Assembly: GCF_049969415.1 (NCBI RefSeq)
Contig: NZ_JBMFOX010000002.1
Span: 1 to 64,000 of the forward strand
Source: Candidatus Hadarchaeum sp.
Lineage (GTDB): Archaea; Hadarchaeota; Hadarchaeia; Hadarchaeales; Hadarchaeaceae
Direction: 5' to 3'
DNA: 64,000 nt
In this document: one piece after another, positions 31 through 53,727 of the stretch
Numbering within the stretch: position 1 is the stretch's first letter
Layout of the letters: every line of letters begins with the position of its first letter
Made by a program: the position numbers and the translations under genes
Notes under the pieces: model-generated
What the model was told of the DNA's origin: nothing
The model's database searches: none
Seen by the model: the letters and a program-made list of their open reading frames with translations, nothing else

Positions 31-1181
31 TCCTTCGAAATTTTGACTTCGCCGAGATTTTCACGTTGAAAGAGCCCCTCACCTCACGACCGTCGTGAGA
101 AGTAGACCCCCGATTTCTGTACCCCAAAAACTCGTCTGAGGGGTAGGACAAGCCTCGTGAGATACTCACAGCTAGGGCTGGCGGGCAGCTCTGTGCTATC
201 GCTGGCGCTTACCGTGCGGCGATGGAGATCAAGTCCGCGAGCCTGTCCCTGCCCAGCCCCGGCCAAACGCCGGCCCGGTGGGCTGGAGTTTCCCTGTTTC
301 CGTGGCGCACGAAGTTCACTATCGCCCGGTAAAGGCGGACGAAAGCTTGGGCCGAGCGGAAGCTCTTGAAGCTGCGCATGACCTTGTACCGCTGCTTGAG
401 GTCTCCGTTTCGGCGCTCGATCGGGTTGTTGTTGAACCGAAGGCCGAACTGTTTGCACGCAATCGGCACGCCGTGCACGAGCCTTGCTATCCGGTAGAAA
501 TATCGGTTGAAGGCGCACTTGATCGCGCCCCACTTGTCGCTGACGAAGGTCACGAGCCTTCGTTCCTTGGGCGGCTTTTCGCGCTCGCGCTCGAAAACCC
601 CGCGTATCTGGCCCCCGAGGCGCTTTTTCAGGCGCGCGAAGAACCCGTCGTAGGCTTCAAGGTCCCTCCTCTCCGACAGCACGGCCTCCGGGCAGTAGCC
701 CGTCCGGGAGTCGACCGTGTGTATGACGCAGTGCCTGCGCCCGCGGACCTCGACGAAGACCTCATCCACGTGCATGCGCCCCTTGATCTCAGGCTTCTGC
801 TTGCGCTCGAACCGCTCGATGAGCTCCGAGTACTCCTTCACCCAGCTGAGCATCGCGTGGTCGCTTGGCCGATACCCGAAGTGCTGCCAGAGGAAGTCCC
901 TGATCTTGCTGAGCGACAGCCCCTCCACGTACAGGTGCAGTGCCTGCACGATCACTTCCTTAGGGTAGTGCTTGCCCTCGAAGCCGTCGCGCTCGACGAA
1001 ATACCGATTGCAGTCCTTGCACCGGTATCCCTGGCTGGTTCTGTACTTGCCTTTGTACTTGCCCGCCTTCTTCACCCGCTCCGAACCACAGTCTGGACAC
1101 TTCAATTCGCTTCACTCCTGACCCCCCTCCTCAGTCCAGCCCCGAAGATAATTGGCCCTGTCAGGTCAAAAATTTGAAGGA
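31..1181. repeat. Imperfect 17-bp inverted repeat pair flanking the transposase (31-47 and 1165-1181)
   Basis: TCCTTCGAAATTTTGAC versus reverse complement of GTCAAAAATTTGAAGGA: 15/17 match. No target-site duplication seen. Confidence 0.4.
209..1105 (-). mobile_element. IS6-like (DDE) transposase with N-terminal zinc ribbon
   Basis: CPDC..CKDC zinc ribbon, HTH (GLSLSKIRDFL..WV), DDE motifs HVDE / VSDK / NNPIERRN, and C-terminal RSFKSF..A..F..NF. Visibly GC-richer than the downstream flank. Confidence 0.85.
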
Positions 1182-1213: not shown

Positions 1214-1948
1214 ATGTACTATCTCGAAGTGAAAAATTTAACGAAGAAATACGGTAATGTTACAGCGTTATCCAATTTTTCCTTAGAGATAAAAAAAGGC
1301 GAGCTGGTTTGTGTTATAGGACAATCCGGATGTGGTAAGTCCACATTATTAGGGTGTATATCGGGGATAAAAAGTATCGACGGGGGGTCAATAAAATTTG
1401 AGGGCGGACTTAAAAAACCAAAAATAGCGGCCGTGTTTCAAGAGGACCGGTTACTCCCTTGGTACACGGCAGAAAAAAATATTGAGCTGGCTGTGGAACA
1501 GTTTTATACCGACCCTGAAGAAAAAAGGAAGAGAATTGAAAAGGTATTGGATTTGGTGCGTTTGAAGGGCGCCAAACATAAGTATCCTTTGGAGCTATCC
1601 GGTGGTATGAGACAACGTATTTCAATAGCTAGGGCGTTGGCAATAGATCCCGATTTGCTTCTTATGGATGAACCATTTAGTAGTTTGGACGAGATAACCG
1701 CAGAACATCTGAGAATTGAACTCGAAAGGATATGGCGGGAAACCAAGAAGACCATTATCTTCATAACGCATGATATAAGCGAGGCCGTTTGTTTGGGCGA
1801 CAGAATAATCGTAATGACAGGAGCGCCGGGGAGAAACTTCGGTGAAATTAAGGTCAATCTCAGACGTCCCCGCAACAAAACTTCAGAAGCATTTTTCTCG
1901 GTCTTAAAAAAGGCCACGAGGATGCTTGCCGATGCCTCCAAAGCTTAA
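1214..1948 (+). CDS. ABC transporter ATP-binding protein (NitT/TauB/SsuB type)
   Basis: Walker A GQSGCGKST, FQEDRLLPW, LSGGMRQR signature, LLMDEPF, ITHD. Confidence 0.93.
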   Translation: MYYLEVKNLTKKYGNVTALSNFSLEIKKGELVCVIGQSGCGKSTLLGCISGIKSIDGGSIKFEGGLKKPKIAAVFQEDRLLPWYTAEKNIELAVEQFYTDPEEKRKRIEKVLDLVRLKGAKHKYPLELSGGMRQRISIARALAIDPDLLLMDEPFSSLDEITAEHLRIELERIWRETKKTIIFITHDISEAVCLGDRIIVMTGAPGRNFGEIKVNLRRPRNKTSEAFFSVLKKATRMLADASKA

Positions 1949-2678
1949 AGGTACAGAAATTTTTAAGAGGTTGTTAATCGGGCTGGCCATCGTGGTGGCA
2001 GTATGGTACCTACTTTCTTTTTTGAACCCAGTGGTGCCACCACCTCACACTATTTTGAGTTATATGCTTGAAATTGAAAAAATTGGAACTCACTTCTTTA
2101 CCACTCTTTATCGCATAGGATCTGCCTTTGCGCTTTCAGTTTTAATTGGCTTGTTTCTTGGAATGGCTATGGGGAGGTTTAAGACGGTTGAAGCCTTGCT
2201 GGGATCCTTTGTGGGCTTTGTTTTAACAATCCCAGCGACAATCTGGGCTTTTTTAGCTTTTATCTTGTTTGGGGTAACAACGTGGTCGGTGATTTTCGTC
2301 GCCATGATAACCACTTTTCCAATAGTGGCTTTTAGCATTACCGAGGGTATCAAAAGCAGGGACGTGCGCTACGATGAAATGGCCGATGTTTTTGGATTCA
2401 GCAGATGGAAGAAAATCAGGCGGGTCTTTTTGCCCTACCTGTTTCCCTACATCATCGGTTCGGCAAGATCGGCTTTCGGAGTAGGCGTGAAGTTGATCAT
2501 AATCGCGGAATTGATAGGTACAACAGTTGGTGCGGGCCTACAGCTCCTTTATTACTACGGTATGGGAATGTTTGTTTATGTATACAGCTATGCAATACTT
2601 TTGATAGCCATCTACGTTGTTTTCGATTTAGTTATTTTCGGTGCCATTGAACGTTACGCTACGCGATGGAAAAGATAA
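1932..2678 (+). CDS. ABC transporter permease (TauC/SsuC type)
   Basis: Multi-TM; VVPPP motif; EAA-like loop EMADVFG..RRVFLP; IIAE; overlaps the ATPase stop. Confidence 0.9.
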   Translation: MPPKLKGTEIFKRLLIGLAIVVAVWYLLSFLNPVVPPPHTILSYMLEIEKIGTHFFTTLYRIGSAFALSVLIGLFLGMAMGRFKTVEALLGSFVGFVLTIPATIWAFLAFILFGVTTWSVIFVAMITTFPIVAFSITEGIKSRDVRYDEMADVFGFSRWKKIRRVFLPYLFPYIIGSARSAFGVGVKLIIIAELIGTTVGAGLQLLYYYGMGMFVYVYSYAILLIAIYVVFDLVIFGAIERYATRWKR

Positions 2679-2746: not shown

Positions 2747-2992
2747 TTAGAGTTTAAGCATCCTTCTAATCGCCTCTCGGTTGAACCCGACGATTATTTC
2801 TCCGTTGATATCCAGCACCGGTACACCCATTTGACCTGATTTCTCCACCATTTCCACCGCAGCGGCTCTGTCGCTAGCGACGTTTTTCTCGATAAATTCA
2901 ACGCCGTGTTCTCGCAGGAAATTTTTGGCCATAGTACAGTAGGGACAGGTCGGAGTGGTATAGATTTTAACCACAGTTTTTTTCTCCACCAT
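2747..2992 (-). CDS. Glutaredoxin / NrdH-like redoxin
   Basis: CPYC motif, GQMGVPV, IVGF. Confidence 0.93.
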   Translation of the reverse strand: MVEKKTVVKIYTTPTCPYCTMAKNFLREHGVEFIEKNVASDRAAAVEMVEKSGQMGVPVLDINGEIIVGFNREAIRRMLKL

Positions 2993-3240
2993 GTTATACC
3001 CCAATATCAAATTTCATTTCAGCTATATTAACACTTTGCAACATCGGAGTTCAGACGGATGCCTCCAACTGTAGGTCAATTGGCGTGCAACCCGAGCCGT
3101 TGATTTTTAGCCGTGCGTTTCAAGTTCTGGTGATTTAAACTAAAATTTGATGGCTTGTTTCGAGATGAGCTTTCTCCGGTGGAATTGGCGGCAGGAAAGG
3201 GTAAAATTATTGGGATAGAAGAATTGAATGGTGACGGTTG

Positions 3241-3483
3241 ATGTCAGCATTAGCGGTTCGCGTGGATCGGGATAGCTGCATTGGTTGTGGTGCATGTTGG
3301 ATCTCTTGTCCGGATGTGTTCGAGCAAAACCAAGAAGACGGTCACAGCCAGATAGTTAAGCAGTATCGAGTGGGAAACCACCTCAGTGAAGGAATAATCC
3401 CCCCTGATTTGGAGGGTTGTGCTAGAAGCGCTGAGGAATCATGTCCCGTGCAGATTATTCACCTGACTCAAAGTGAGCGGTAA
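3241..3483 (+). CDS. Monocluster ferredoxin
   Basis: CIGCGAC..CPDVF and distal CPV. Confidence 0.9.
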   Translation: MSALAVRVDRDSCIGCGACWISCPDVFEQNQEDGHSQIVKQYRVGNHLSEGIIPPDLEGCARSAEESCPVQIIHLTQSER

Positions 3484-3596
3484 AAGAGCAAGAACTCATG
3501 CCCTCTGCTCGGCCGCTGCTCTATTATTCCTAGTAGTAATTATCTAACAGAAAGATATAAATACCAGTAATTATTAATTTCTTTCAATTTAAGGTG

Positions 3597-5108
3597 ATGA
3601 ATCTGGAGAAAACGGTGGTCAGAAAATCGGTGGCGGAAATAAACGAAAAAATCAAGCGTGGTGGTGCCGTTGTAGTGACCGCCGAGGAGATGGTTGAGAT
3701 CGTTAGGGAAAAGGGACCCATCGATGCCGCCAAGGAGGTCGATGTTGTCACTACAGGTACCTTCGGGGCCATGTGCAGTTCAGGCGCTTGGTTGAACTTC
3801 GGCCACTCCGACCCGCCGATAAAAATGCAGCGCGTCTGGATAAACGATGTTGAGGCCTACACGGGCGTCGCTGCCGTTGATGCCTACATCGGGGCCACGC
3901 AGCTGAGTGAGACCAAAGGCATGGACTACGGCGGTGGTCATGTCATTGAGGATTTAGTCCGAGGAAAAGAGGTCGAGGTTAGGGCCACCGCTTACGGCAC
4001 CGACTGCTACCCGCGGACCCAAATCGAGACCCAAGTTACCATAGAGGATTTGAATCAGGCGGTGCTCTGTAACCCCAGAAACGCTTATCAGAAGTACACA
4101 GCTGCCACCAACTCCAGAAGTGAGACCATTTACACCTATATGGGCACGCTTCTCCCGAGATACGGTAATGTTACCTATTCCGGGGCGGGGGAGCTAAGCC
4201 CGCTGAATAAAGATCCCAATTATGAGACCATCGGAATCGGCACGCGTATCTTTCTTTGCGGTGCCCAGGGGTACATTTTCTGGGAAGGCACCCAGCACAA
4301 CCCCACCAAGGCTCTAGGCACGATCATGACGGTTGGTAACCTTAGGGAGATGAACGCGCGCTACCTGCGCGGCGCAAGTATCAACAGATATGGGACCTCC
4401 CTCTACGTGGGGCTTGGCATTCCGATTCCGATAATAAATGAACGCGTGGCTAAAACCGCAGGAACTGGTGACGACGAGATTAAGACCAATATCGTCGATT
4501 ACGGCGTCCCTAGGCGAGACCGCCCCGTGGTCAGGGAAGTTACCTATGCCGAACTGAAATCGGGTAAGGTAAGGATTGGGGATCGAGATGTTCCGGTTAG
4601 CCCGCTGAGCAGCCTCAAGCGCGCGAGGGAAATTGCCAACGTTTTGAAAAAGTGGATTGTCGAGAAGAGATTTTTCCTCTCGGAGCCGGTTGAGAGATTG
4701 TCCACCGACAGGATATTTAAGCCGATGAAACAGTTGGCTGTGGTCTCCTTCGCCAAGGATCTAATGGTGAAAACCGTGGTGACGGCCAAACCCAGCGACA
4801 CAATTGTCAGCGCAGCCAAGTTAATTGCTGAAAGAGGGTTTGATCATCTACCCATAGTTGACGATGAAGGGAAGCTCGTGGGAATAGTGACATCCTGGGA
4901 CATTGCCGTGGCCGTGGCTACAAAGAAAAAGAAACTTTCCGAGATCATGACGACGAAGGTCATCACAGCTAGGGAAGACGAACCCGTAGAGCTAGTGGCC
5001 AGAAAACTGGAGAAGTACGGCATCTCAGGAGTCCCGGTTGTCGGATCAAAGGGTGAGCTTAAAGGGATAATCACCAGCGATGATTTATCCAAGTTGCTGA
5101 GGCGATAG
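3597..5108 (+). CDS. Homocysteine biosynthesis protein, DUF39 + CBS pair (MA1821/MJ0100 family, aspartate-semialdehyde sulfurtransferase)
   Basis: VDVVTTGTFGAMCSSG, YGGGHVIEDL, PRNAYQ motifs; two C-terminal CBS domains. Confidence 0.92.
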   Translation: MNLEKTVVRKSVAEINEKIKRGGAVVVTAEEMVEIVREKGPIDAAKEVDVVTTGTFGAMCSSGAWLNFGHSDPPIKMQRVWINDVEAYTGVAAVDAYIGATQLSETKGMDYGGGHVIEDLVRGKEVEVRATAYGTDCYPRTQIETQVTIEDLNQAVLCNPRNAYQKYTAATNSRSETIYTYMGTLLPRYGNVTYSGAGELSPLNKDPNYETIGIGTRIFLCGAQGYIFWEGTQHNPTKALGTIMTVGNLREMNARYLRGASINRYGTSLYVGLGIPIPIINERVAKTAGTGDDEIKTNIVDYGVPRRDRPVVREVTYAELKSGKVRIGDRDVPVSPLSSLKRAREIANVLKKWIVEKRFFLSEPVERLSTDRIFKPMKQLAVVSFAKDLMVKTVVTAKPSDTIVSAAKLIAERGFDHLPIVDDEGKLVGIVTSWDIAVAVATKKKKLSEIMTTKVITAREDEPVELVARKLEKYGISGVPVVGSKGELKGIITSDDLSKLLRR

Positions 5109-5109
5109 A

Positions 5110-5511
5110 ATGGCGCGAAAAATTTTGTTGAACTATTCGGTGGAAAAAGTCAAGGAGCCGATTTTGTCTGAGGTAATCAGGGAAACAGGTTTGGCCCTTA
5201 ACATCCTTTACGCCGAGTTCGGGGCAAAGGGCGGAGAAATCCTCATTTCCGTCGAGGCTCCGGATCCGGACGTGGAACGGGCCGTTGAACTCTTCAGAAA
5301 GAAGGGTTTGGAAGTAAAGGAGATCAAACGCGCGATTCGCCTCGACCGTGAATCCTGCATCGACTGTGGGGCCTGCTTGTCCCTCTGTCCAAGCGGAGCG
5401 CTCTACCAAGACAAGGACAACACCGTCCTGCTTGATGAGGACAAATGCGTTTACTGCGAACTCTGCGTACCGGCCTGCCCGGTAAGGGCGCTGGAGCTGT
5501 CGAAGTTCTAG
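5110..5511 (+). CDS. NIL domain + 2[4Fe-4S] ferredoxin (MA1822/MJ0099 family)
   Basis: EPI..NILYA NIL domain; two CxxCxxCxxxCP motifs; adjacent to DUF39. Confidence 0.9.
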   Translation: MARKILLNYSVEKVKEPILSEVIRETGLALNILYAEFGAKGGEILISVEAPDPDVERAVELFRKKGLEVKEIKRAIRLDRESCIDCGACLSLCPSGALYQDKDNTVLLDEDKCVYCELCVPACPVRALELSKF

Positions 5512-6291
5512 GTGGTCCTCACGTTTGAACGGACGTGGTCCTTCAAGGAGACCCACCTACGGATAAAGTGTGACTTCGATCAGGCAATAGATGCCGCCAT
5601 TTCCGCCGCGCTCAGGGCCCGCATAGAAATCGAGCGTTTGATTCTGACATGTCCTGAGTTCCGCTGGTCTCTTGAACCCGTGAAACTGGAAGGAAACCAT
5701 CCACGAGTCATCGAGCTGATGTTGCTGGCTAGCGAGTTGGCTAGTGTTGGGCCTTTTGCAGCCGTTGCTGGGGCGATTTCGCAGGTCGCGGCCGAGGCAG
5801 CTCTGGCCGCCGGCGCTAAAAATGTGCTGGTCGACAACGGCGGTGATATCTCGATCTTTGGCGACAAGGAATTTCGCGTCGGGATTTTTGCAGGTGCAGC
5901 GGCCGGGTCGGGAAAGCTGGGTTTTCTGGTCAAAAAAGAGGAGCTGCCTATAGGGATATGCGCCAGTTCCGGCACCGTGGGGCATTCGCTGAGCTTCGGT
6001 TGGGCCGACGTGGCCGTCGCCGTCGCCGATGACGCCGCCTTGGCCGACGCCGCCGCGACCTCGATAGGCAATGCGGTCTGCGGTGACGATGTTGAGCAAT
6101 CCATTAAATCGGGTTTGGAAAGGGCCAAGAATATACCGGAAATTAGGGGATGCTTGATAATTAGGGATAAGCATGTTGGAGCTTGGGGAAAATTGCCCGA
6201 ACTCATAAGCATTGGCGAATCGCGCGAGCTCCTAACCACCCTGCAAAAATACCGGGTTTATAGAAGCGACGTTGAACAGATTGTTGGATGA
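5512..6291 (+). CDS. UPF0280 / ApbE-like protein (COG2122)
   Basis: GPFAAVAGAI, DNGGDI, SSGTVGHSLSFG.AD, LADAAAT.IGN. Confidence 0.9.
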   Translation: MVLTFERTWSFKETHLRIKCDFDQAIDAAISAALRARIEIERLILTCPEFRWSLEPVKLEGNHPRVIELMLLASELASVGPFAAVAGAISQVAAEAALAAGAKNVLVDNGGDISIFGDKEFRVGIFAGAAAGSGKLGFLVKKEELPIGICASSGTVGHSLSFGWADVAVAVADDAALADAAATSIGNAVCGDDVEQSIKSGLERAKNIPEIRGCLIIRDKHVGAWGKLPELISIGESRELLTTLQKYRVYRSDVEQIVG

Positions 6292-6377
6292 AGTTCGGAT
6301 GGTTTAGCTGAATTTAGAAAGAGTTACCAAATGATGGTGAGAAAAAAGTTAGCCTGCATTGGCCTAACCCTTCTTGA

Positions 6378-6974
6378 TTAAACCGGTATAGCCAAACTAT
6401 CTACCAGCTTTAAAAAGTCGGCAAAGGGCAAACCTAGCGCCAGCTCGTTTGGCGAATAACCGGCCAGTTCCCTAGCGCCACCGCAGAGGAGCGTCAGATT
6501 GGGCCTGTGCTCCATAAACGGTATGGCCACGGCCTCTCCAGCAATTGCCCCGCCGTGGCAGGTCATGCTCGCCTCAAGAGGCTTCTTCAGGCTTTTAGTG
6601 AGCGCCTGCACCACCAGCATGGCATGGGCAGGATCGGTTATGACAACAACGACGTCGGGTTCGATTTCGATTTTCTCCAGCGGCGCGACCACGATGGACT
6701 TCGTCTTTGCTGGTTTGACGCGGGGATAAAGATCCACATATTGAGGCTCCCTGTAACCGAGGATTACCCGTGTGCTAAAGTTGCTGAGGTCGTCCGCGCC
6801 AATGACATGGATTTCACCGGTGTAGGCGGTTTTTCTCACCAGTTCACAGAAAAGAGAAGGGACGGAGGGCCTGTTGCCTGCGATCGGCCTTTCCGAGATG
6901 TGTATGGCAACGGGGCTGGTATTGATCTGAAACGCCTCTTTAAAATTCCGGGACAGCGAGGCATAATTCCTCAA
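6378..6974 (-). CDS. DUF169 family protein
   Basis: PVAI..FCELV, PLE..EPDVVV, LLCGGAR..ELALG.P pattern; GAGGTGA SD before TTG. Confidence 0.8.
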   Translation of the reverse strand: MRNYASLSRNFKEAFQINTSPVAIHISERPIAGNRPSVPSLFCELVRKTAYTGEIHVIGADDLSNFSTRVILGYREPQYVDLYPRVKPAKTKSIVVAPLEKIEIEPDVVVVITDPAHAMLVVQALTKSLKKPLEASMTCHGGAIAGEAVAIPFMEHRPNLTLLCGGARELAGYSPNELALGLPFADFLKLVDSLAIPV

Positions 6975-7023
6975 CTTTAATCACCTCACTGATTTTGTTG
7001 GGCGAGCATTTATACAACACCGG

Positions 7024-7060
7024 TTTTGATATCAAAATCTATAAATATAACGATGTTATA
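7024..7060. promoter_or_regulatory. Two palindromes in the divergent DUF169 / tRNA-Cys intergenic region
   Basis: TTTTGATATCAAAA (7024-7037) and TATAAC-gat-GTTATA (7046-7060) in AT-rich TATA-like sequence. Confidence 0.45.
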
Positions 7061-7175
7061 ATAATTTAAAAACCAGCGGTAAAGGTTTACCAGCGAAACG
7101 GCTTCCATGGAAAATCAAAAACCGCTGGACGATGGGCGGTACAGAAAATTGGAAAAGCTTGGCTTGAACCGGCGG

Positions 7176-7249
7176 GCCAGGGTGGCCGATTGGCTAGGCA
7201 GTGGGCTGCAGACCCACCTAAGCAGGTTCAATTCCTGCCCCTGGCTCCA
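7176..7249 (+). tRNA. tRNA-Cys(GCA)
   Basis: Acceptor GCCAGGG/CCCTGGC; anticodon arm GTGGG-CTGCAGA-CCCAC; T arm GCAGG-TTCAATT-CCTGC; U73 discriminator; encoded CCA. Confidence 0.97.
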
Positions 7250-7354
7250 CGAAGTTGGCTGAGCAGGAACAATGCTGATGGGTGAACGTTAATATTTGCT
7301 GAGTTGATATGATAAAGAAGAGCAGGTAGATCAGAGGGATGGTGAAAATAAATT

Positions 7355-8563
7355 ATGCCCAAGATACCAAAGGACCGGCTTGAAATTTACCGGGAGCTGA
7401 AGCGCGATTTCAGCGAGGATAAATTCATCAATTTGCATCCGATTCAGCGCGGCGGCGTGCTGTCTCCGGAGGCCAGAAGAGCCATCATTGAATTTGCCGA
7501 CGGTTATTCCACCTGCGACTGGTGCCCGCCCAAGACGGCGAGGCTCGACATGATTCAGCGGCCGCCGATTGCCCAGTTCATGCAGGATCTCGCCGAATTT
7601 TTGGGAATGGACGTGGCCCGTGTCGTGACCCGGTGCCGCGAGGCGCAGTTCATCGCCTTCACCATGCTCGGCAATCCTGGAGACTATGTGATCTTGGACA
7701 GCCTCGCCCACTATTCCACCTACACCGCCGCCGAGCTGGCGCGGCTCCGGATAAAGGAGGTACCTCACGGTGGTTATCCTGAATTTAGGCTTAAGCTAGA
7801 CGCATATGCGGACAAGATTGAGGAGGTCAGGAGGGAGACAGGGAAGTTGCCGGCGGCAGTTTTGCTCACGCATGTGGATTACCTTTACGGCAACCTCAAT
7901 GATGCCGCGGTGGTCGGAAAAATTTGCAAGGAATATGGCGTCCCCTTCATCCTGAATGCCGCCTACAGCGCCGGAGTGATGAATGTCGACGGGAAAAAGT
8001 TAGGCGCCGACATCATCACCTCCAGCGGACACAAGTCTTGGGCGGCCAGCGCCCCGACGGGAATTCTAGCCGCGACAGAGGAGATGGGCGAGAAACTGTT
8101 CGCCCGCTCCAGAATAGTTGGTGATTGGAGCCAGCGGAAGTTCAGCTTCAAGGAGTACGCGCTGCTTGGCTGCACGGTGATGGGTGCTCCACTGATGACC
8201 CTGATCGCCTCGTTCCCCCACGTGGTCGAGCGCGTGGAGAGGTGGCCCCAAGAGGTGGAGAACACCAGATACTTGGTCGAACAGCTGGAGAGGATCGAGG
8301 GCACCCGCCAGATTGGTGTCAGGCCGAAGGAGCACACGCTGACGCATATGGAGTCGGATGGATTTTACCGGGTTTCACAGACCCACAAGCGGAAGGGCTA
8401 CTTCCTCTATGAGGAGCTCAGACGCCGTGGCATCGTCGGCATCCAGCCCGGTCTGACCAGGCACTTCAAGTTCAACACCTACGGGCTTCCGCGGGAAAAG
8501 GTGGAGAGAGTTGCTCAGGCCTTTCTAGAGATAGCCGAGGAACAGAAACTGAAGGCCAGTTGA
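7355..8563 (+). CDS. pscS: O-phosphoseryl-tRNA:Cys-tRNA synthase (SepCysS)
   Basis: INLHPIQRGG, DGYSTCDWC (CxxC), AHYS, SGHKS (PLP Lys), LGCT. Confidence 0.95.
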   Translation: MPKIPKDRLEIYRELKRDFSEDKFINLHPIQRGGVLSPEARRAIIEFADGYSTCDWCPPKTARLDMIQRPPIAQFMQDLAEFLGMDVARVVTRCREAQFIAFTMLGNPGDYVILDSLAHYSTYTAAELARLRIKEVPHGGYPEFRLKLDAYADKIEEVRRETGKLPAAVLLTHVDYLYGNLNDAAVVGKICKEYGVPFILNAAYSAGVMNVDGKKLGADIITSSGHKSWAASAPTGILAATEEMGEKLFARSRIVGDWSQRKFSFKEYALLGCTVMGAPLMTLIASFPHVVERVERWPQEVENTRYLVEQLERIEGTRQIGVRPKEHTLTHMESDGFYRVSQTHKRKGYFLYEELRRRGIVGIQPGLTRHFKFNTYGLPREKVERVAQAFLEIAEEQKLKAS

Positions 8564-8605
8564 GAACTGGTCTTGAAGGTTAAATATACCCGTCGTGATG
8601 GGTAA

Positions 8606-9493
8606 TTGGTGTCTTGTGTGGAGAAGACCAACCGTGATTCGAAACAGCCCGGTGGAAGAATTTTCTTTGGATTGACGCAGGACCAGCTCGTGCGCTACAG
8701 CCGTCAGCTGATCCTTAAGGAGGTTGGCGGAAAGGGTCAGAAGAAGCTGATGCATTCCAAGGTGCTTATCATCGGCGCCGGTGGTCTGGGGTCCCCAGCT
8801 GCCCTGTACTTGGCCGCGGCTGGTGTGGGCAGGATTGGAATAGTCGATTCCGACAAGGTTGACCTCAGCAACCTGCAGCGACAGATCATCCATTCAAAGG
8901 GTTTCATCGGCAAGCCCAAAGCAGCCTCGGCGAAAAATGCCATTCTCGCGCTGAACCCTGAGGTGGAGGTTGTCACCTTTGAACAGCGCCTTACTCCGGA
9001 AAACGCCCTCGACATCATAGGCGGCTGGGACTTTGTGGTCGACGGCAGCGATAATTTTCCGACCAAGTTCCTCGTCAACGATGCCTGCGTGCTCAAGGGT
9101 GTGCCGTTCTCGCACGCCGGCGTCCTCAGGTTCATCGGGATGACGATGACCGTTCTGCCGCGGAAGGGTCCTTGCTACCGTTGCCTCGTCAAGGAAGCGC
9201 CTCCTCCCGGAGCGGTGCCCACCTGTCAGGAGGCCGGAGTGCTGGGGACGGTGCCGGGCGTCATGGGAACTATTCAGGCGACCGAGGCCATCAAATTCCT
9301 ACTCGGCGTGGGTAGTCTCCTCATCGGCCGGGTTCTCTACTTCGACGCGCTTAGCCTGAGGTTCGACCAATTTGAGCTGAAGAGAAATCCAAAATGCCCG
9401 TCCTGCGGGGACAGACCGCTCATCAGAGACCTATCTCAGGTCGACTACGGAACCGCCTGCAGGGTGAGATCAGATGTCCAAGGTGAAGGTTGA
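8606..9493 (+). CDS. ThiF/MoeB/UbaA family E1-like adenylyltransferase (true start probably near 8672)
   Basis: RYSRQ, GAGGLG, SNLQRQ, DGSDNF, CYRC, catalytic TCQEAG, CPSC; no rhodanese domain. Confidence 0.93.
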   Translation: MVSCVEKTNRDSKQPGGRIFFGLTQDQLVRYSRQLILKEVGGKGQKKLMHSKVLIIGAGGLGSPAALYLAAAGVGRIGIVDSDKVDLSNLQRQIIHSKGFIGKPKAASAKNAILALNPEVEVVTFEQRLTPENALDIIGGWDFVVDGSDNFPTKFLVNDACVLKGVPFSHAGVLRFIGMTMTVLPRKGPCYRCLVKEAPPPGAVPTCQEAGVLGTVPGVMGTIQATEAIKFLLGVGSLLIGRVLYFDALSLRFDQFELKRNPKCPSCGDRPLIRDLSQVDYGTACRVRSDVQGEG

Positions 9494-9719
9494 TCGCACC
9501 ATCGACATCCGGGGTGAGGTCTGCCCCTACACCTTCGTTAAGTCTAAGCTGGCCCTCGAGGAGCTGAATGGTGGGCAGGTGCTGGAGATATTTTTGGATC
9601 ATGATCCTGCGGTGGAGAATGTTCCCCGCAGTTTGGAGTCGGACGGGCACAGGATTCTCGCTGTGGAGAAGATTGAAGGAGGCTGGAGGATTCTGGTCAG
9701 GAAGGTCCAGTCTCGATAA
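9474..9719 (+). CDS. tusA: TusA/SirA sulfur carrier
   Basis: IDIRGEVCPY, GQVLEI..D, ENVP. Confidence 0.9.
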   Translation: MSKVKVDRTIDIRGEVCPYTFVKSKLALEELNGGQVLEIFLDHDPAVENVPRSLESDGHRILAVEKIEGGWRILVRKVQSR

Positions 9720-10128
9720 CCTCTAGCTCAACGTCGCAAACCTTACCTTCCTGCATCGTAAACGCCTTTATCTCCGAGATCGCATCCTTGCTCATTCCTA
9801 TGATTACCCACACTAGGTGGCCCCAGAACTTCATGAACGCAGCGTCCCGGGCGCTGACGTAGGCATGGAGGTTGGGATGGGAGTGATAAACGCCGATGAG
9901 CTGCAGCCCGCGTTTTTCTGCGCCCCTATAGACTTCATAGACAAACTGCGGGTCCGCCTCGAAGGCTACTGGAGAGTCGAGCGTGTTCTTGGCCTTGACC
10001 ACCTCCCTGACATCAAACACCCCCTTTGCCGAAGTCCCGACTAACAGGCCGACGCACTCGTAAGGATAGGCCTCCCGCGCATGGGCCTCGATTTTTTTGA
10101 GATCCGATGATTTTATCTTTAGTTTCAT
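9697..10128 (-). CDS. JAMM/MPN+ (M67) metalloprotease
   Basis: YPYECVG and YHSHP..VS..D JAMM motif; start MKLKIK at 10128. Confidence 0.92.
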   Translation of the reverse strand: MKLKIKSSDLKKIEAHAREAYPYECVGLLVGTSAKGVFDVREVVKAKNTLDSPVAFEADPQFVYEVYRGAEKRGLQLIGVYHSHPNLHAYVSARDAAFMKFWGHLVWVIIGMSKDAISEIKAFTMQEGKVCDVELEVIETGPS

Positions 10129-10132
10129 CGTC

Positions 10133-10768
10133 TCACTCAGAAAGAACCCTGCCCACCTGTTCCAGCCAGAGACACATCTCGCAGTCCTCGCTCCGTGGAG
10201 GTGGCCTTTCCAGTTCCAAAATTTTCCTTGCCTTGGCCAGTACCGGCAGCACCCGGCTGGAATCGGTTTTCGCCGGGACCGCCGTGATTTTAAAAGGGAA
10301 GCAGCTCTCCGAGATATTTCCCGGCTCGGGCGTGAAATAGAGAAGGAAACCACCCATCACCGGCCCGTAGCCGTTGTGCTCGAGCAGATAGGCGTAGCCG
10401 TCGAGCTGCATCTGATAGTAGCGCGGTATCTCTCGCGGGGGTCGGCCGGTCTTGTAGTCGATAATGTGATAACCTTTATCCGGACTCTGCACCAGGGCGT
10501 CCAATTTTCCTCTCAAGGTGATGCCGCTAGCGGGGTCAGTCGCCGTTAGCGTTTTGTTGATATCCAAGAATTTGCCCTTGACCGGAAACCAGTTGGGCAG
10601 ATTGGATTTTCCGATGAACTGCTTCATGAAACCCTTGATCACCGAGTCCATCTGGCTGGTTATGCCGGCGACAATTGCCGGTGCCGGACCGATGCGCTCG
10701 GCCAGCCAGAAGCAGAGGGGGCAGTCGAGCACAGACTGGAGTTCGGTGACGCTGATTTCCGTTCTCAT
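10133..10768 (-). CDS. PD-(D/E)XK nuclease, RecB/Cas4-like
   Basis: GKLD..IIDYKTG..QLDGY; CPLC at N-terminus and CEMC at C-terminus. Confidence 0.85.
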   Translation of the reverse strand: MRTEISVTELQSVLDCPLCFWLAERIGPAPAIVAGITSQMDSVIKGFMKQFIGKSNLPNWFPVKGKFLDINKTLTATDPASGITLRGKLDALVQSPDKGYHIIDYKTGRPPREIPRYYQMQLDGYAYLLEHNGYGPVMGGFLLYFTPEPGNISESCFPFKITAVPAKTDSSRVLPVLAKARKILELERPPPRSEDCEMCLWLEQVGRVLSE

Positions 10769-10893
10769 TAAGATCATAGAACATTTTGGCGGTAGTGCTT
10801 AAAAATAAGGACAAGCCCGGGTTAAAATTGAGAAGTTTCCTTGTTTGAGGGCAGCTTGCCCTTTAAACGGATTTTGATCCATAATTTACTGAA

Positions 10894-11269: not shown

Positions 11270-12069
11270 TTAACTTCCTGAAGGCCTATCGGGAGGAAAA
11301 TCCCTGACCCGGTAAATTCCCTTCCCCAGGAACTCAATTATGCCTTGATCTCGCAGAATCTGCAACTGTTGACGGATTTTTGGCCGGACGTTTTTGTTGG
11401 CGGGATGAAGCCTGGCTAGCTTTTCCTCGAACGCGTAGATGTCAGCCAAGGTGAAAATCTCACGATTAAGGTTTCTTATTCCGGCGAGCACGTCTGACAG
11501 CCAGCCGCGGGAGCGGACTGGACGGTCCTTCAGAAAGATGAATCTTTTCCAGTTTTCTCTCACGATGATTTTAGGTATTTCAACTCCGTTTTCGATTATA
11601 AAAATTCTGGCGTCTGGAGGCAGGTTGTCCAACAAAATGTTGGAGCCGACCCAGCCGTGTCTTCTTGCCCTAGCGCTAAGGGGTTTTCTCTTTTCGATTA
11701 TTGATTCAGAAATGAAGTGTTTGGGTACAGCGAAGAGGTTGGAAATGACCAAGGCATTGGGATTATAGTGCAGAAATAAGTTCGGGATGGTCCCCGCGTA
11801 GATTGCCTTAATTTTGGGGTCATACGCCGAATTCATTACCCGTTGGCCAAAAGGATGGCTCTGGCTCTTCAGCTGGTAGATTCTTCACAACGGGGACAAA
11901 CAAAATCGATTACTCTTTTTCCCGCCGGTGTGGGTTGTAAATTTTCCGAAGGACAGGCGAGACAATACAGGTTTTCACCCGCCCAACTTTCAGTTAGTAT
12001 TTTAGCGCGTTGTGAGGGGCTTTTGTAACCCTTGACCAGATCAGATCTTAGTTCTAAGTTCAACCCCAT
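11270..12069 (-). pseudogene. DpnI-like (Dam-replacing family) methyl-directed restriction endonuclease, frameshifted
   Basis: YKSPSQRAKILTESW..YC..C..DFVC..C in one frame; YQLKS..RKPLS..ARRHGWVG..KIRQQLQILRD in another; shift near 11879. Confidence 0.88.
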
Positions 12070-12209
12070 CCCAAAATCAGTGAGCCAGCGGGATCTAAAG
12101 ATCTTTCGAGTTAGCTACATTATTATTTTTTTTCAAAATGTGGATTGTTGGGTTTTAATGCGGTTGAATCAGGTTGATATATTTTTTCCAGTCTCCAAAA
12201 TTTAGTTCG

Positions 12210-13877
12210 ATGTTGTTCCTAGCGCTGGCTGAGGTCTGTGAGAAAATTAGCGCCGCCGCCAAGCGCAGCGAGATGATCACACTGGTCACTGATTTCTTGA
12301 AAAGTTTGAGTCTCGCGGAGCTGGAGACGGCCTCCTGTATGCTCTTGGGCCGCCCCTTCCCGAACACGAGCCAGTTGCGATTGGATGTGAGCTGGGCAAC
12401 TCTCGTCGATATCATCCTTCGGATAACAGGTGCTGGCGGCAGCGAGTTAGCCGCTGCTTTCAGCCGGACCGGTGACATCGGTGCCGCGACGGAAATTCTC
12501 TTTGAGTCGCGAACTAAGCGCCAGCAGATCTTTGCGCTGAAACCTCTGCATATCGCGGAAGTGAATGAAGTGTTGAAAAAGGTTGCTAGCTTTAGTGGTC
12601 CCGGAGCGAGGAAGAAGAAGGAGCGGTTGCTCGAGGGGCTCTTGAATCGATGCAACCCGCTTGAGGCCAAGTACCTCGTCAAGATTGTCACGGGTGAGAT
12701 GCGCACCGGTTTTAAGGAGGGACTGATGGAGCTGGCCGTGGCTCGGGCCTTCCGGGTCCCCGTCGGCTTGGTGCGGAGGGCAGTGATGTTTGTGGGCGAT
12801 ATTGCGATCGTCGCCGGAATTGCAGCCAAGTCCGGTGAGGATGGTCTGAAAATAGTTGGCCCAACCCCGATGAGACCCATCAGCCCTATGCTTGCCCAAG
12901 TCGCCCGAGATATCGATGAAGCGATTGAGATACACGGAGGAACCACAATCCTTGAGTACAAGCTCGATGGTGCCAGGGTCCAAGTGCACAAGCGGGAAAA
13001 TGAGGTCAGAATATTCAGCCGCCGCGTGAGCGATGTAACCGGCAGCCTTCCGGAGATAAAAAATCTGGTCCATCGGGAGCTTCAAGCCACCGAGGCAATT
13101 GTGGAAGGAGAGGTCATCGCGGTGGCCAAAGATGGCTATCCACTACCGTTCCAATCGCTGTTGCAACGCTTCAGGCGAGAAAGGGAAGTGGAGAAGATGT
13201 CTAGAGAGATTCCGGTCAGGCTGTATCTTTTTGACTTGCTCTACCTCGACGGACTAAGCTTCGTGGACCAGCCCTGCGAGGAGCGCCGGAGGAGGTTGAG
13301 AGAGATAGCCGGCAACATCGAACTGACCGAGCAGCTGAGAACTTCCAGAGCAGATCTGGGTAAGGATTTCTTGGTGCGGGCCTTGAGGGCAGGGCATGAG
13401 GGGCTGATGGCAAAGAAACCGGGCAGTCAGTATGTCCCCGGCGTTAGGGGAAAGCTCTGGCTCAAGATAAAACCCATTCTTGAACCCCTTGATCTTGTGG
13501 TAGTTGGCGCTGAGTTTGGTTACGGGAGAAGACATCAGTGGCTCTCCGATTACTACTTGGCAGCGCGTGATGAGAACACTGGAAATTTTGAGATCGTTGG
13601 AAAGACCTTCAAAGGTCTGAGCGACGATGAGATCAAGGAAATGACCCGGGAATTGCAGAATCTTGTGGTCAGGCTGGAAGGGAGGAGGGTCTGGGTTCTG
13701 CCGAGGATAGTAGTTGAGATCGCCTACAATGAGATACAGCGCAGCTCCAAGTATCCCTGCGGCATGGCGCTTCGGTTTGCTAGGATAATTAGGCTGCGCC
13801 CTGACAAGTCGCCCATGGAAGCCGACACCATTCAAAGAGTTCAAGAAATTTTTGAGAAGCAGGTCAAGAGAATTTAG
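12210..13877 (+). CDS. lig: ATP-dependent DNA ligase
   Basis: EYKLDG, EGE, FDLLY, EGLMAK, WLKIK, LRFAR..RPDK. Confidence 0.96.
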   Translation: MLFLALAEVCEKISAAAKRSEMITLVTDFLKSLSLAELETASCMLLGRPFPNTSQLRLDVSWATLVDIILRITGAGGSELAAAFSRTGDIGAATEILFESRTKRQQIFALKPLHIAEVNEVLKKVASFSGPGARKKKERLLEGLLNRCNPLEAKYLVKIVTGEMRTGFKEGLMELAVARAFRVPVGLVRRAVMFVGDIAIVAGIAAKSGEDGLKIVGPTPMRPISPMLAQVARDIDEAIEIHGGTTILEYKLDGARVQVHKRENEVRIFSRRVSDVTGSLPEIKNLVHRELQATEAIVEGEVIAVAKDGYPLPFQSLLQRFRREREVEKMSREIPVRLYLFDLLYLDGLSFVDQPCEERRRRLREIAGNIELTEQLRTSRADLGKDFLVRALRAGHEGLMAKKPGSQYVPGVRGKLWLKIKPILEPLDLVVVGAEFGYGRRHQWLSDYYLAARDENTGNFEIVGKTFKGLSDDEIKEMTRELQNLVVRLEGRRVWVLPRIVVEIAYNEIQRSSKYPCGMALRFARIIRLRPDKSPMEADTIQRVQEIFEKQVKRI

Positions 13878-40583: not shown

Positions 40584-41792
40584 TTGACCAAGAGCGTTGA
40601 TGAGGTTAGGGCGGATATACCGTTTTTGCGCACGGGAATTATCTACCTGGACAATGCCGCCACCACACCCACGCCCGAGCCGGTGATTGAGGCAATGTTG
40701 AGTTACTACCACGAGTTCAGCGCAAACGTGGGTCGGGGTTTGCACCGGGCGGCCAAGCGTGCCACTGAAGAATTCGAGGCGGCCCGCGAGAAGGTTGCCC
40801 GCGTCATAGGCGCCAAGCCTGATGAAATAATCTTCACCAAGAACACGACCGAGGCCATAAACCTCGTTGCCCGCGGGCTGGGTCTGAAAAGGGACGACAA
40901 GGTAATAACGTCTTTGTTTGAGCACCACAGCAATCTTTTGCCTTGGCAGCGGCTGGAGAGGGAGCGTGGGGTGAAGCTGGAGGTGGTGGGGAGCTCCCGA
41001 GAGTGTCTGCTTAATCCCGCCGAGTTCGAGGCAGCGATTGACCGGAACACCCGCCTCATAACCACCCACCATGTTTCTAACGCAATCGGCAGCGTACAGC
41101 CGGTTGAGGAAATCGGTAAGTTGGCCCGGGATTATGGGGTCCTTTACTTAGTCGATGCCGCGCAGTCGGTAGGGCATATGCCCGTTGACGTTCGCAAGAT
41201 TGGCTGTGATTTCATGGCGGCGCCCGGGCACAAAGGCCTCCTTGGTCCGCAGGGAACTGGCTTCCTTTACGCCCGTGAGGACAAGATTTCCGCGCTGGAG
41301 CCTCTTTTGACAGGAGGGGGAATCGTGGAGGATGTCGACCTGCACAGCGCCAGGCTTGTCGATCCCCCTCAGATTTTCGACGCCGGGACGCCGAACATTC
41401 CGGGCATCATCGGCTTGGGCAGGGCCTGCGAGTATGTGATGGACATTGGCATTGATAAAATTGCGGAGAGGGAGATGGAGCTTACTAGGCGCATGCTTAA
41501 GATAGCGGAAAACAGCAGAGTTGAAGTCTACGGTCCCAGAGGCTTGGAGCGGCGCGGAGGGGTGGTTAGCTTCAACATCAGCGGGCTCAGCCCTCACGAG
41601 GTGGCCTCCATGCTCGATGAACTGGCCAAGATCGCCGTTCGTTCCGGGCACCACTGCGCCCAGCCCACCTTCAGGCATCTGAGGATCAACGGCACCGCCC
41701 GCGCCTCGGTTCACTATTTCAATCTGGAGAGCGAGGTAGAAAAGTTCGTGGAGCTGGTAGGAGAGATAGCTAAGGAGTTAGGGACTTTATAG
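40584..41792 (+). CDS. Cysteine desulfurase, class II (SufS/Csd-like)
   Basis: YLDNAAT, EHHSN, DAAQ, GHK, RSGHHCA. Confidence 0.93.
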   Translation: MTKSVDEVRADIPFLRTGIIYLDNAATTPTPEPVIEAMLSYYHEFSANVGRGLHRAAKRATEEFEAAREKVARVIGAKPDEIIFTKNTTEAINLVARGLGLKRDDKVITSLFEHHSNLLPWQRLERERGVKLEVVGSSRECLLNPAEFEAAIDRNTRLITTHHVSNAIGSVQPVEEIGKLARDYGVLYLVDAAQSVGHMPVDVRKIGCDFMAAPGHKGLLGPQGTGFLYAREDKISALEPLLTGGGIVEDVDLHSARLVDPPQIFDAGTPNIPGIIGLGRACEYVMDIGIDKIAEREMELTRRMLKIAENSRVEVYGPRGLERRGGVVSFNISGLSPHEVASMLDELAKIAVRSGHHCAQPTFRHLRINGTARASVHYFNLESEVEKFVELVGEIAKELGTL

Positions 41793-52277: not shown

Positions 52278-52367
52278 CCCATCTCCCATACAGGTTTGAG
52301 TGTCGGGGCATTTAAAACTACAGGGCACTTCATTATCTTAGGGTGCAAAGGGGGCGGAGGTGAAATA

Positions 52368-53606: not shown

Positions 53607-53727
53607 AAGATTTGGGATTAGACGCAGGATTTGAAATCAGTTCCATATCTTAAGGAGCATGAGACCGCCCTTTCTTTTTCTCGTGTGCGGAGGTGTATCG
53701 TCCTCTTCCGAGTAGCTGAAATGCCGT

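Follow-up and report, generated by a model that had tools for sequence, protein, structure and literature searches.

Ever since SepCysS (O-phosphoseryl-tRNA:Cys-tRNA synthase) was discovered, its sulfur donor in vivo has been in question, and a review of 2008 says that the matter “awaits further investigation”. Here we describe a locus that supplies a concrete candidate. It lies in the first 64,000 nucleotides (nt) of contig C2, hereafter the window, of a 1.47-Mb archaeal genome bin (G000, 95% complete) assigned to Candidatus Hadarchaeum, an uncultured archaeon of a hot environment. In this window the SepCysS gene is followed by genes for a ThiF/MoeB-type activating enzyme (E1) of ubiquitin-like proteins (Ubls), a TusA persulfide carrier and a JAMM metalloprotease, and stands downstream of a gene set for homocysteine synthesis. 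The cluster is real and made of known families, forming a conserved sulfide-assimilation supercluster of this archaeon; the novelty lies in a conserved link that joins SepCysS to the Ubl-activating system.

Several described systems resemble parts of the locus. In Haloferax the UbaA/SAMP/HvJAMM1 system relies on a single rhodanese-less E1 that serves several Ubls, for molybdenum cofactor (Moco) synthesis and tRNA thiolation, and in Escherichia coli TusA feeds Moco synthesis through the IscS-TusA-MoaD/MoeB route. The CysO/CysM/Mec system of Mycobacterium tuberculosis, with MoeZR, is said to use a pyridoxal phosphate (PLP) enzyme that swaps the phosphate of O-phosphoserine for thiocarboxylate sulfur; reportedly one E1 is common to Moco and cysteine synthesis there, and a JAMM protease is included. 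The HcyS/HcyF/HcyD/MetY system of Wolinella, on which Krishnamoorthy and Begley reportedly published in 2011, is said to be the studied example of the type 4e operons introduced below, and the work of Rauch, Perona and Allen on MA1821, MA1822 and MA1715 of Methanosarcina acetivorans reportedly did not include E1, TusA or JAMM. The type 4e class was set out by Iyer, Burroughs and Aravind (2006, PMC1779556), who describe operons of Ubl, E1, SirA (TusA) and JAB together with sulfur-assimilation genes. Experimental support for thiocarboxylate-dependent homocysteine synthesis by MetO, MetM, MoeZ and Mec of Streptomyces is recorded in Table 2 of GapMind (2026, PMC13759103). The DUF39 enzyme catalyzes the sulfur-insertion step from aspartate semialdehyde to homocysteine, according to Price (2018, PMC5764234), citing Rauch and Allen.

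SepCysS neighborhoods themselves have been drawn before. For clade VII SepCysS loci, Mukai et al. (2017, mBio, PMC5424206) report tRNA-Cys beside SepCysS together with some sulfur metabolism genes, and Fig. S2 of that paper carries the labels “thiF” and “DUF169” at Hadesarchaea, MSBL1 and other loci. There thiF is drawn uncommented: ThiF, MoeB, TusA and ubiquitin occur 0 times in the main text, and the parts available make no mention of Ubl, TusA, JAMM, Ubl::E1 fusions, copy number or the breadth of the linkage. A later paper notes that DUF169 occasionally adjoins SepRS (Mukai et al., 2022). Our literature search found no publication joining SepCysS with ThiF or TusA; SepCysS was not found in the listed papers on thiocarboxylate, MoeB and UbaA, nor was anything on its donor in two reviews (PMC9499178, PMC5688128), and after the 2008 review none was found linking the enzyme to E1, TusA or a thiocarboxylate. 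An initial annotation of the window had put the system forward as a candidate for an undescribed one. For the literature searched this is close to correct, but thiF had already been drawn at such loci (Mukai et al., 2017, Fig. S2).

Linkage of SepCysS with a Ubl-activating enzyme

Among 41 relatives of the same order, Hadarchaeales (G labels), 34 hold both E1 and SepCysS. The two genes lie within 1 kb of each other in 17 of these genomes, within 4 kb in 23 and within 10 kb in 26, the remaining 8 having them on other contigs or far apart. Random placement in genomes of about 1.1 Mb gives, by arithmetic, an expectation of about 1%, and the control gene SepRS, whose product works in one pathway with SepCysS, lies within 10 kb of the E1 in 0 of 33 genomes; the linkage is not chance. 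One relative, G023 (91% complete), yielded SepRS, MoaE and five Ubl genes and neither SepCysS nor E1, a pattern that fits the two genes being adjacent in one unassembled stretch.

A second survey covered 80 SepCysS loci (L labels) of species-representative genomes, the best 80 of 300 relatives, and is biased to sequences like the query. An E1 lies within 3 kb of SepCysS in 45 of the 80, distributed by record label as follows:

Hadarchaeota, 25 of 42
Methanomethylicia, 12 of 12
“Thermoproteota”, 2 of 2, with the layout of Methanomethylicia
“Nitrososphaerota”, 2 of 2, likewise with that layout
“Hydrothermarchaeota”, 1 of 1
uncultured, 1 of 3
Bathyarchaeia, 2 of 18

Many of the negative loci have short flanks, and where at least 3 kb is available on both sides the E1 is present in 29 of 42. 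The phylum represented by L083 (“Hydrothermarchaeota”) consists of two genomes only, with the operon in both. The genomes involved are small, and the Ca. Methanosuratincola record is a complete genome; in it and in both “Hydrothermarchaeota” genomes, as in the window genome, the E1 linked to SepCysS is the sole E1. The initial annotation had offered absence of the linkage from related genomes as grounds for giving up its proposal. The surveys speak the other way: across the order Hadarchaeales SepCysS has a linked E1, accompanied or not by Ubl, TusA and JAMM, and the linkage recurs in Methanomethylicia-type genomes, in the two-genome phylum and in the two Bathyarchaeia loci counted above.

The pairing is found in at least six gene orders, in which short and long refer to the two E1 clades described further below:

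Order 1, the commonest in Hadarchaeota: DUF39, NIL ferredoxin, COG2122, Ubl (MoaD-type, ending in GG), short E1 and SepCysS, tightly packed, often with a convergent JAMM gene behind
Order 2, the window genus: SepCysS, long E1 and TusA, with JAMM convergent
Order 3, both small-phylum genomes (L083): long E1, TusA, SepCysS, DUF169 and a thioredoxin-fold gene
Order 4, Methanomethylicia: E1 and SepCysS divergent, about 370-430 nt apart
Order 5: ThrC-like gene, Ubl::E1 (in-frame fusion) and TusA, with JAMM convergent, all divergent from a second SepCysS type followed by DUF169
Order 6 (L121): ThrC-like gene, Ubl, about 780 nt, then SepCysS and E1

One genome, G021, carries orders 1 and 5 within 15 kb, so that it has two SepCysS and two E1 genes with each E1 near one SepCysS. 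In L079 a run of Ubl, E1 and TusA leads straight into DUF39, NIL ferredoxin and COG2122. In-frame Ubl::E1 fusions occur in both E1 clades (L039, L040, L041, L043, L052, L071, L072, L074 and L085-L087; L075-L078, L119 and L122). A 71-amino-acid (aa) open reading frame (ORF) between E1 and SepCysS in L104, considered as a candidate Ubl, is not a Ubl. We also observed a DsrE-like gene (L119:14957-15334, in G021) right behind SepCysS, at the end of an operon of order 1, and, in a type-2 Hadarchaeota locus, another TusA gene adjoining a sulfite/nitrite-reductase-family gene (L076:14562-16331), 3.4 kb from SepCysS-DUF169.

An E1 tree of 50 sequences falls into two deep clades (support 100/99), both of them linked to SepCysS. 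The long clade, coupled to TusA, contains the window E1 together with both “Hydrothermarchaeota” genomes and the type-2 loci of Hadarchaeota, whereas type-1 Hadarchaeota, Methanomethylicia and two Bathyarchaeia fall in the short clade. In a SepCysS tree of 65 rows, 15 rows having been left out as duplicates or for short flanks, the window genus forms its own four rows with 99% support and is nested in the type-1 group, where its neighbors carry a short E1 or none; the tree requires 9 changes of E1 state. A nested type-1 SepCysS beside a long-clade E1 means that the E1 was replaced in place in the window genus: judged from these trees, the genus appears to have lost the pair of Ubl and short E1, and a long E1 with TusA took their place beside SepCysS. 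The window E1, TusA and JAMM are related to the modules of ThrC-like gene, Ubl::E1, TusA and convergent JAMM.

The Ca. Hadarchaeum locus and its genome

Genes were called from the ORF listing, ARAGORN, Pfam and NCBIfam, with structural relatives from a search of the PDB. The locus comprises the following features:

2747..3010, minus strand: glutaredoxin (PF00462, E 1.1e-19), just outside the start given by the initial annotation
3238..3483, plus strand: small single-cluster 4Fe-4S ferredoxin (Fer4_15, E 3.6e-17), upstream of the homocysteine operon
3594..5108, plus strand: DUF39/COG1900 (HcyBio) enzyme with two CBS domains (PF01837, 498 bits)
5110..5511, plus strand: NIL-domain/2x[4Fe-4S] ferredoxin of the MA1822 type, the DUF39 partner (NIL E 2.5e-10, plus Fer4)
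5512..6291, plus strand: UPF0280/COG2122 (ApbE-like), MA1715 type (PRK04334 models E 9e-70, under their cut-offs; PDB 2o34 E 4.6e-32)
6378..6974, minus strand: DUF169 (COG2043; PF02596, 99 bits), divergent from tRNA-Cys/SepCysS
7040..7059, between DUF169 and tRNA-Cys/SepCysS: TATA-like box (TATAAATA) and palindrome ATAACGATGTTAT (palindrome at 7047-7059)
7176..7249, plus strand: tRNA-Cys(GCA) with G37 (ARAGORN), heading the SepCysS unit
7355..8563, plus strand: SepCysS (TIGR02539, 494.7 bits vs cut-off 365.25)
8606..9493, plus strand: ThiF/MoeB-type E1 (PF00899, 283.7 bits vs 28.1)
9474..9719, plus strand: TusA (PF01206, 84.2 bits vs 28.6), overlapping the E1 gene by 20 nt
9697..10128, minus strand: JAMM/MPN+ metalloprotease (Prok-JAB, 67.6 bits vs 25)
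10133..10777, minus strand: PD-(D/E)XK (Cas4-like) nuclease (PDDEXK_1, E 3.3e-14), 4 nt upstream of JAMM

All ten genes from ferredoxin through JAMM that the initial annotation had named are present where it placed them. Its picture of a single contiguous locus is right for the adjacency of the genes, but DUF169 and JAMM lie on the minus strand, so there is no single co-directional operon. Instead the locus is predicted to consist of three transcription units. The first (ferredoxin, DUF39-CBS, NIL ferredoxin and COG2122) would make homocysteine from aspartate semialdehyde and sulfide, a pathway already known in methanogens and Desulfovibrio. The second (tRNA-Cys, SepCysS, E1 and TusA) would be transcribed from behind the TATA box and the palindrome ATAAC-N3-GTTAT, with DUF169 divergent, and the third (PD-(D/E)XK and JAMM) would converge on the second. 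A look for RNA support listed no record over positions 6900-10300.

In the first unit, DUF39, NIL ferredoxin and COG2122, the three genes by which the homocysteine pathway is recognized, are all present and adjacent. The NIL ferredoxin gene starts 1 nt past DUF39, an adjacency kept in relatives, and COG2122 abuts the NIL ferredoxin gene with a 0-nt gap. The COG2122 product is predicted to be a sulfide-assimilation helper, and its gene lies within 3 kb of SepCysS in 30 of the 80 loci. Among the SepCysS loci the small ferredoxin has a homologue at the same place in L069 only. Glutaredoxin, which in 10 of 80 loci has a homologue no more than 10 kb from SepCysS, is a possible thiol/disulfide partner whose membership in the cluster is weak.

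The predicted SepCysS scores above the TIGR02539 equivalog cut-off and is homologous to solved SepCysS chains (PDB 3wkr/5x6b, E 6e-114; 2e7i, E 1e-96). It is 87-89% identical to the proteins of other Ca. Hadarchaeum records, which share the gene order. K227 (in SGHKSW), C54, C57 and C273 are invariant in 80 sequences; we take K227 to be the PLP lysine and the three cysteines to be those that carry the persulfide. SepRS is encoded elsewhere in the genome (contig C3, 561 bits), and so is CysRS. Two distinct tRNA-Cys(GCA) genes, both with G37, are present (C2:7176 and C22:1418), only one of them linked to SepCysS.

DUF169 may be the most specific partner of SepCysS among the families of unknown function. 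It stands directly behind type-2 SepCysS in relatives, and C43 and C164 are invariant in 13 sequences. A long form of about 340 aa, whose additional C-terminal region belongs to no known family (L076:11195-12211, L083:11151-12182 and L119:8415-9434), follows type-2 SepCysS directly in all three loci, with a 0-nt gap or an overlap. No solved relative of DUF169 was found by sequence; with an AlphaFold2 model (mean predicted local distance difference test score 67) Foldseek found nothing at E <= 0.001, and the best VIA-align Z for the model, 4.3, is within noise. A literature search on DUF169/COG2043 returned incidental mentions only.

The window E1, at 295 aa, scores above the MoeB subfamily model NF004281 (277.9 vs 266) and below the UbaA equivalog cut-off (NF047750, 344.4 vs 450), hence the name UbaA/MoeB-like rather than UbaA. 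Its translation holds GAGGLG, presumably the nucleotide-binding glycine motif, CYRC and CPSC, which we take as two CxxC pairs, and PTCQEAGVLG, presumably the conserved cysteine loop. By Pfam and NCBIfam it has no rhodanese domain, which sets it apart from the MoeZ/Uba4/MOCS3 type, and it carries no fused Ubl. At 70% identity it matches the E1 portion of the Ubl::E1 fusions found in relatives, the Ubl domain being absent. A “PGG” in its N-terminus was considered as a relic of the Gly-Gly of a lost Ubl and dropped, the motif not being kept in the three other Hadarchaeum loci.

TusA is translationally coupled to the E1 through the 20-nt overlap, and in relatives it always lies right behind a long-type E1. 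It falls below the NCBIfam TusA and YedF equivalog cut-offs, and the C17-P18 of its Cys-Pro motif is invariant in 16 sequences. Co-folding of SepCysS (two copies, 80-row alignment) with TusA (16 rows) scored 0.00 against a mark of 0.32, and no conclusion is drawn from this score. The JAMM HSHPNLHAYVSARD motif is intact, as expected for metal binding; the protein scores below the desampylase equivalog (54 vs 130), and JAMM is also found beside SepCysS, E1 and TusA in relatives. Its gene is convergent with TusA, the 3′ ends overlapping by 23 nt, and is probably transcribed together with the PD-(D/E)XK nuclease gene. That nuclease is probably a syntenic neighbor outside the sulfur system; its gene adjoins SepCysS, with or without JAMM, in L015, L018, L035, L039 and L092. 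Further along lie a DpnI-like (Dam-replacing family) endonuclease gene (11270-11836, minus strand) and an ATP-dependent DNA ligase gene (12174-13877, plus strand).

The genome holds two TusA and two JAMM genes in total, and the window E1 is its sole ThiF-family E1 above the cut-off. The second TusA gene opens a run (C2:97721-99531, beyond the window; L117) that continues with genes for a DsrE-like protein and a class V aminotransferase; this TusA belongs to a clade with the motif LDCLGLYCP that differs from the E1-linked TusA clade (DIRGEVCPYTFVKSK). E1, a persulfide carrier (rhodanese or TusA) and JAMM, the combination expected of thiocarboxylate pathways, occur together in the window. The Gly-Gly Ubl is missing from the window locus; relatives have one, free-standing (ending in FPPVAGG) or fused to E1. 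No Ubl carrier gene was found in the window, and the six ThiS/MoaD-family genes of the genome are all on other contigs:

Ubl 1, directly before MoaE, which makes it MoaD
Ubl 2, before an NcsA/TtuA-type PP-loop gene, SAMP2-like
Ubls 3 and 4, beside aldehyde:ferredoxin oxidoreductase (AOR) genes
Ubl 5, ending in GGGK, beside TldD/PmbA
Ubl 6, without Gly-Gly

Because it is the sole E1 and the carriers are assigned by their neighbors to MoaE, NcsA/TtuA and AOR, the window E1 is best seen as a general carrier-activating enzyme. The Ubl ending in GGGK could need trimming. In relatives with a short E1, JAMM lies within 3 kb in 0 of 9 cases where the Ubl is free-standing, 6 of 11 where it is fused in frame and 0 of 22 with no Ubl beside the E1, which suggests that JAMM frees the Ubl from the Ubl::E1 fusion; the fused forms make up about two clades, so this is a lead and not a result. 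The window itself retains no such fusion.

The palindrome ATAAC-N3-GTTAT has 5 exact sites in the genome against 0.84 expected. Taken by itself, the single match in the window lacks significance, 58 of 100 shuffles giving at least 1 match. The other four sites (C2:97697, C10:8392, C22:13421 and C26:2877) stand before the second TusA, DsrE and class V aminotransferase genes, before a pair of PP-loop ATPase and Thi4 genes, between rubredoxin-flavin reductase and prismane-family genes, and before a ferredoxin-like gene. At the promoters of these sulfur and Fe-S genes, as at SepCysS/DUF169, the palindrome closely follows a TATA-like box. Three other Hadarchaeum loci (L067, L069 and L070) have the site in the same position, and by the same arithmetic 1.14 Mb of SepCysS loci holds 13 sites against about 0.65 expected; it was not found in the Methanomethylicia SepCysS loci. 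The SepCysS-E1-TusA unit probably belongs to a sulfur/Fe-S regulon, with the palindrome as a candidate operator.

Other features of the window were noted in passing. An IS6-family transposase gene (209-1105, minus strand) abuts ABC transporter genes of the nitrate/sulfonate/taurine type, one for an ATPase and one for a permease (1214-2678, plus strand); no binding-protein gene was seen beside these ABC genes, and the insertion may have removed it. A SufS-like cysteine desulfurase gene lies at 40584-41792 (419 bits, under the cut-off of 475). A second threonine-synthase-like gene at 52296-53606 shares 42% identity with the ThrC-like gene that relatives carry in their Ubl::E1-TusA-JAMM modules, and has no adjoining Ubl; the 105-aa ORF that follows it (53631-53948) was considered as a Ubl and rejected as not being one.

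Sulfur transfer and rival readings

The reading that we tentatively favor, as plausible without being probable, is that E1 and TusA charge MoaD-type carriers and that this sulfur also loads SepCysS by a facultative, not obligatory, route. The E1 would adenylate the C-terminal Gly-Gly of MoaD-type carriers encoded elsewhere in the genome, and TusA would stand in for the rhodanese domain found in MoeZ/Uba4-type E1s, passing persulfide sulfur on to form the carrier thiocarboxylate. The protein-bound sulfur would then go to molybdopterin or tungstopterin synthesis and tRNA thiolation and, facultatively, load a persulfide on the conserved cysteines of SepCysS, possibly on DUF39 too. JAMM would trim or release the carriers, and in relatives it would probably free the Ubl from the in-frame Ubl::E1 fusions. 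We infer each of these transfers, the loading of SepCysS above all, from gene linkage, and from the gene identities, copy numbers, architectures, E1 clades and palindrome sites that were observed. Where it does not adjoin SepCysS, the E1 stands beside MoaE, its known pathway partner, which leaves it just two homes in the genome; these two homes, and a tie rebuilt with a different E1, are why we favor a real hand-over of sulfur, and cysteines invariant in all 80 SepCysS sequences fit persulfide loading. It is possible, and we say so with reserve, that in Hadarchaeota, Methanomethylicia and some other archaea SepCysS naturally takes its sulfur from a MoaD-type Ubl thiocarboxylate made by the neighboring E1, with TusA as persulfide carrier where present. 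The SepCysS persulfide might be loaded in a Urm1-like manner, and JAMM might take off carrier conjugates or release the Ubl from its fusions with E1.

Several observations weigh against such a transfer. SepRS and SepCysS occur with neither E1 nor MoaE in 4 of the 41 relatives (G016, 95% complete; G034, 92%; G012; G030), and therefore E1 appears to follow molybdopterin synthesis and SepCysS to work without it; Methanocaldococcus jannaschii, a control genome, likewise has SepCysS and no ThiF-family match. Among the 41, E1 and MoaE are both present in 29 and both absent in 4, with E1 alone in 5 and MoaE alone in 3. Away from SepCysS the E1 directly adjoins MoaE in nine genomes (G009, G011, G013, G018, G025, G029, G032, G035 and G039), which speaks against a relay specific to SepCysS. 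G015 has no MoaD-type Ubl other than the one in the operon, and its MoaE gene has no adjoining Ubl; the Ubl-E1 pair of that operon is the housekeeping MoaD-MoeB pair. No Ubl is encoded at the window locus, where the sole E1 must serve the MoaD, SAMP2-like and AOR-linked carriers; 16 of 18 Bathyarchaeia loci lack an E1, as do several Hadarchaeota operons that have SepCysS directly behind COG2122; TusA was found in 19 of 41 relatives only; and the shared palindrome offers co-regulation as a simpler cause of the clustering. On these grounds the E1/Ubl pair is a housekeeping MoaD-MoeB system that SepCysS can do without. The initial annotation had spoken of a dedicated relay, a description contradicted by the sole E1, by carriers standing beside MoaE, NcsA/TtuA and AOR genes, by the E1 beside MoaE in relatives, and by SepCysS occurring without any E1 in relatives and in M. 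jannaschii.

The main rival is that E1/TusA, SepCysS and DUF39 are parallel consumers that draw their sulfur independently, from sulfide or from a common activator such as COG2122, and are clustered by one sulfur-responsive regulator with no passage of sulfur between E1, TusA or Ubl and SepCysS. The palindrome that the SepCysS/DUF169 promoter shares with three further promoters of sulfur or Fe-S genes (5 sites vs 0.84), the 13 sites in 1.14 Mb of SepCysS loci, the tracking of E1 with MoaE (29 both, 4 neither, 8 discordant), the presence of SepCysS without E1 in G016, G034 and M. jannaschii, and the proposal of Rauch and colleagues that COG2122 persulfidates DUF39 and SepCysS, as relayed by Price (2018, PMC5764234), all argue for it. 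Yet MoaE, NcsA/TtuA, ThiI, Thi4 and the desulfurases are not comparably linked to SepCysS, the Methanomethylicia pair consists of E1 and SepCysS alone with no palindrome found, and the in-place replacement of the E1 clade and the paired duplicates of G021 point to a specific tie; we hold this account to be possible and on the whole doubtful. That the order of E1 and SepCysS was merely inherited or co-transferred as neutral synteny, without functional meaning, would suit the close kinship of many counted genomes and the way in which E1 clade and SepCysS type largely co-vary, as for one inherited or transferred block. It is the least probable of the alternatives, hardly to be credited given at least six gene orders with two E1 clades, 9 changes of E1 state on the 65-row SepCysS tree, the SepRS control at 0 of 33, and an adjacency that spans the labels of three to four phyla.

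Two further alternatives keep the hand-over and change its course. Sulfur could flow in reverse, the SepCysS persulfide feeding TusA and the E1-bound Ubl adenylate as bacterial IscS does for TusA, MoeB and ThiI. SepCysS belongs to the fold-type I, class V aminotransferase family of the desulfurases (Aminotran_5 match), gene pairs of desulfurase and acceptor are common, the same genome having the second TusA with DsrE and a class V aminotransferase, and L083 has TusA directly ahead of SepCysS. All 34 E1-bearing relatives have SepCysS while the converse fails, but SepCysS is near-universal in the order, so the phyletic pattern says little. We consider reverse flow unlikely: the Haloferax and Sulfolobus controls have ThiF and no SepCysS above the cut-off, so the E1 works without SepCysS in many archaea; the SufS-like and other desulfurases of the genome could serve; and the E1-linked TusA clade differs from the desulfurase-linked one. 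A strict CysO/CysM/Mec-type scheme would have the Ubl thiocarboxylate attack aminoacrylyl-tRNA within SepCysS and JAMM hydrolyze the Ubl-Cys-tRNA adduct. It draws on E1, TusA and JAMM (in relatives also a Ubl ending in GG) standing beside a phosphate-displacing PLP enzyme, and on CysO/CysM/Mec and MetM/MetO/Mec as precedents. The three SepCysS cysteines, needless under direct attack, are nonetheless invariant, the sole E1 at a locus without a Ubl is not dedicated, JAMM within 3 kb in 0 of 9 free-Ubl operons and 6 of 11 fused ones points to fusion processing, and the JAMM gene lies on the opposite strand behind a nuclease gene, all of which makes this scheme very unlikely.

Returning to the facultative loading of SepCysS by E1 and TusA, the repeatedly rebuilt pairing of SepCysS and E1 gives a short list of candidate proteins: E1, a MoaD-type Ubl, TusA and perhaps DUF169. 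If true, tRNA-dependent amino-acid synthesis would have its first step that depends on a protein thiocarboxylate, with one E1/Ubl system feeding cofactor, tRNA and cysteine sulfur. Three ancient sulfur-handling systems would be joined at the locus, which would bear on the route from sulfide to protein in early anaerobes. If the relay is false, the cluster still marks a sulfur regulon with a simple operator in uncultured archaea.

The locus among described systems

The Haloferax UbaA/SAMP and E. coli TusA systems have no linkage to SepCysS, and the window E1 and JAMM score below the UbaA (344 vs 450) and desampylase (54 vs 130) cut-offs. CysM differs in being a fold-type II enzyme that acts on free O-phosphoserine, whereas SepCysS is a fold-type I enzyme that acts on Sep-tRNA and has kept its persulfide cysteines. 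The type 4e operons are closer: their rhodanese-less E1 is always accompanied by SirA/TusA and a JAB protease, in a context of amino-acid sulfur assimilation (Iyer et al., 2006, PMC1779556). The client there is O-acetylhomoserine sulfhydrylase, with genes of sulfate reduction, whereas in the window the neighbors are SepCysS, with its tRNA-bound substrate, and the DUF39 pathway, at a locus without a Ubl.

The MetM/MetO/MoeZ/Mec system has a counterpart beside SepCysS in relatives, where a ThrC-like gene is followed by Ubl::E1 and TusA with a convergent JAMM gene. The window has orthologues of three members of that module, E1 at 70% identity, TusA at about 65% and JAMM at about 50%. Unlike in the MetM/MetO system, the ThrC-like partner and the Ubl domain have both been lost from the window, and its E1 carries no rhodanese domain; the ThrC-like protein is a possible MetM. 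With the M. acetivorans set the window shares the same four families, MA1821 (DUF39/COG1900), MA1822 (NIL ferredoxin), MA1715 (COG2122) and SepCysS; these families co-occur with SepCysS, sulfide is the sulfur source, and persulfides are placed on DUF39 and SepCysS (Price, 2018, PMC5764234). Unlike in M. acetivorans, the window genes are joined in one cluster, to which E1, TusA and JAMM, and in relatives a Ubl, have been added.

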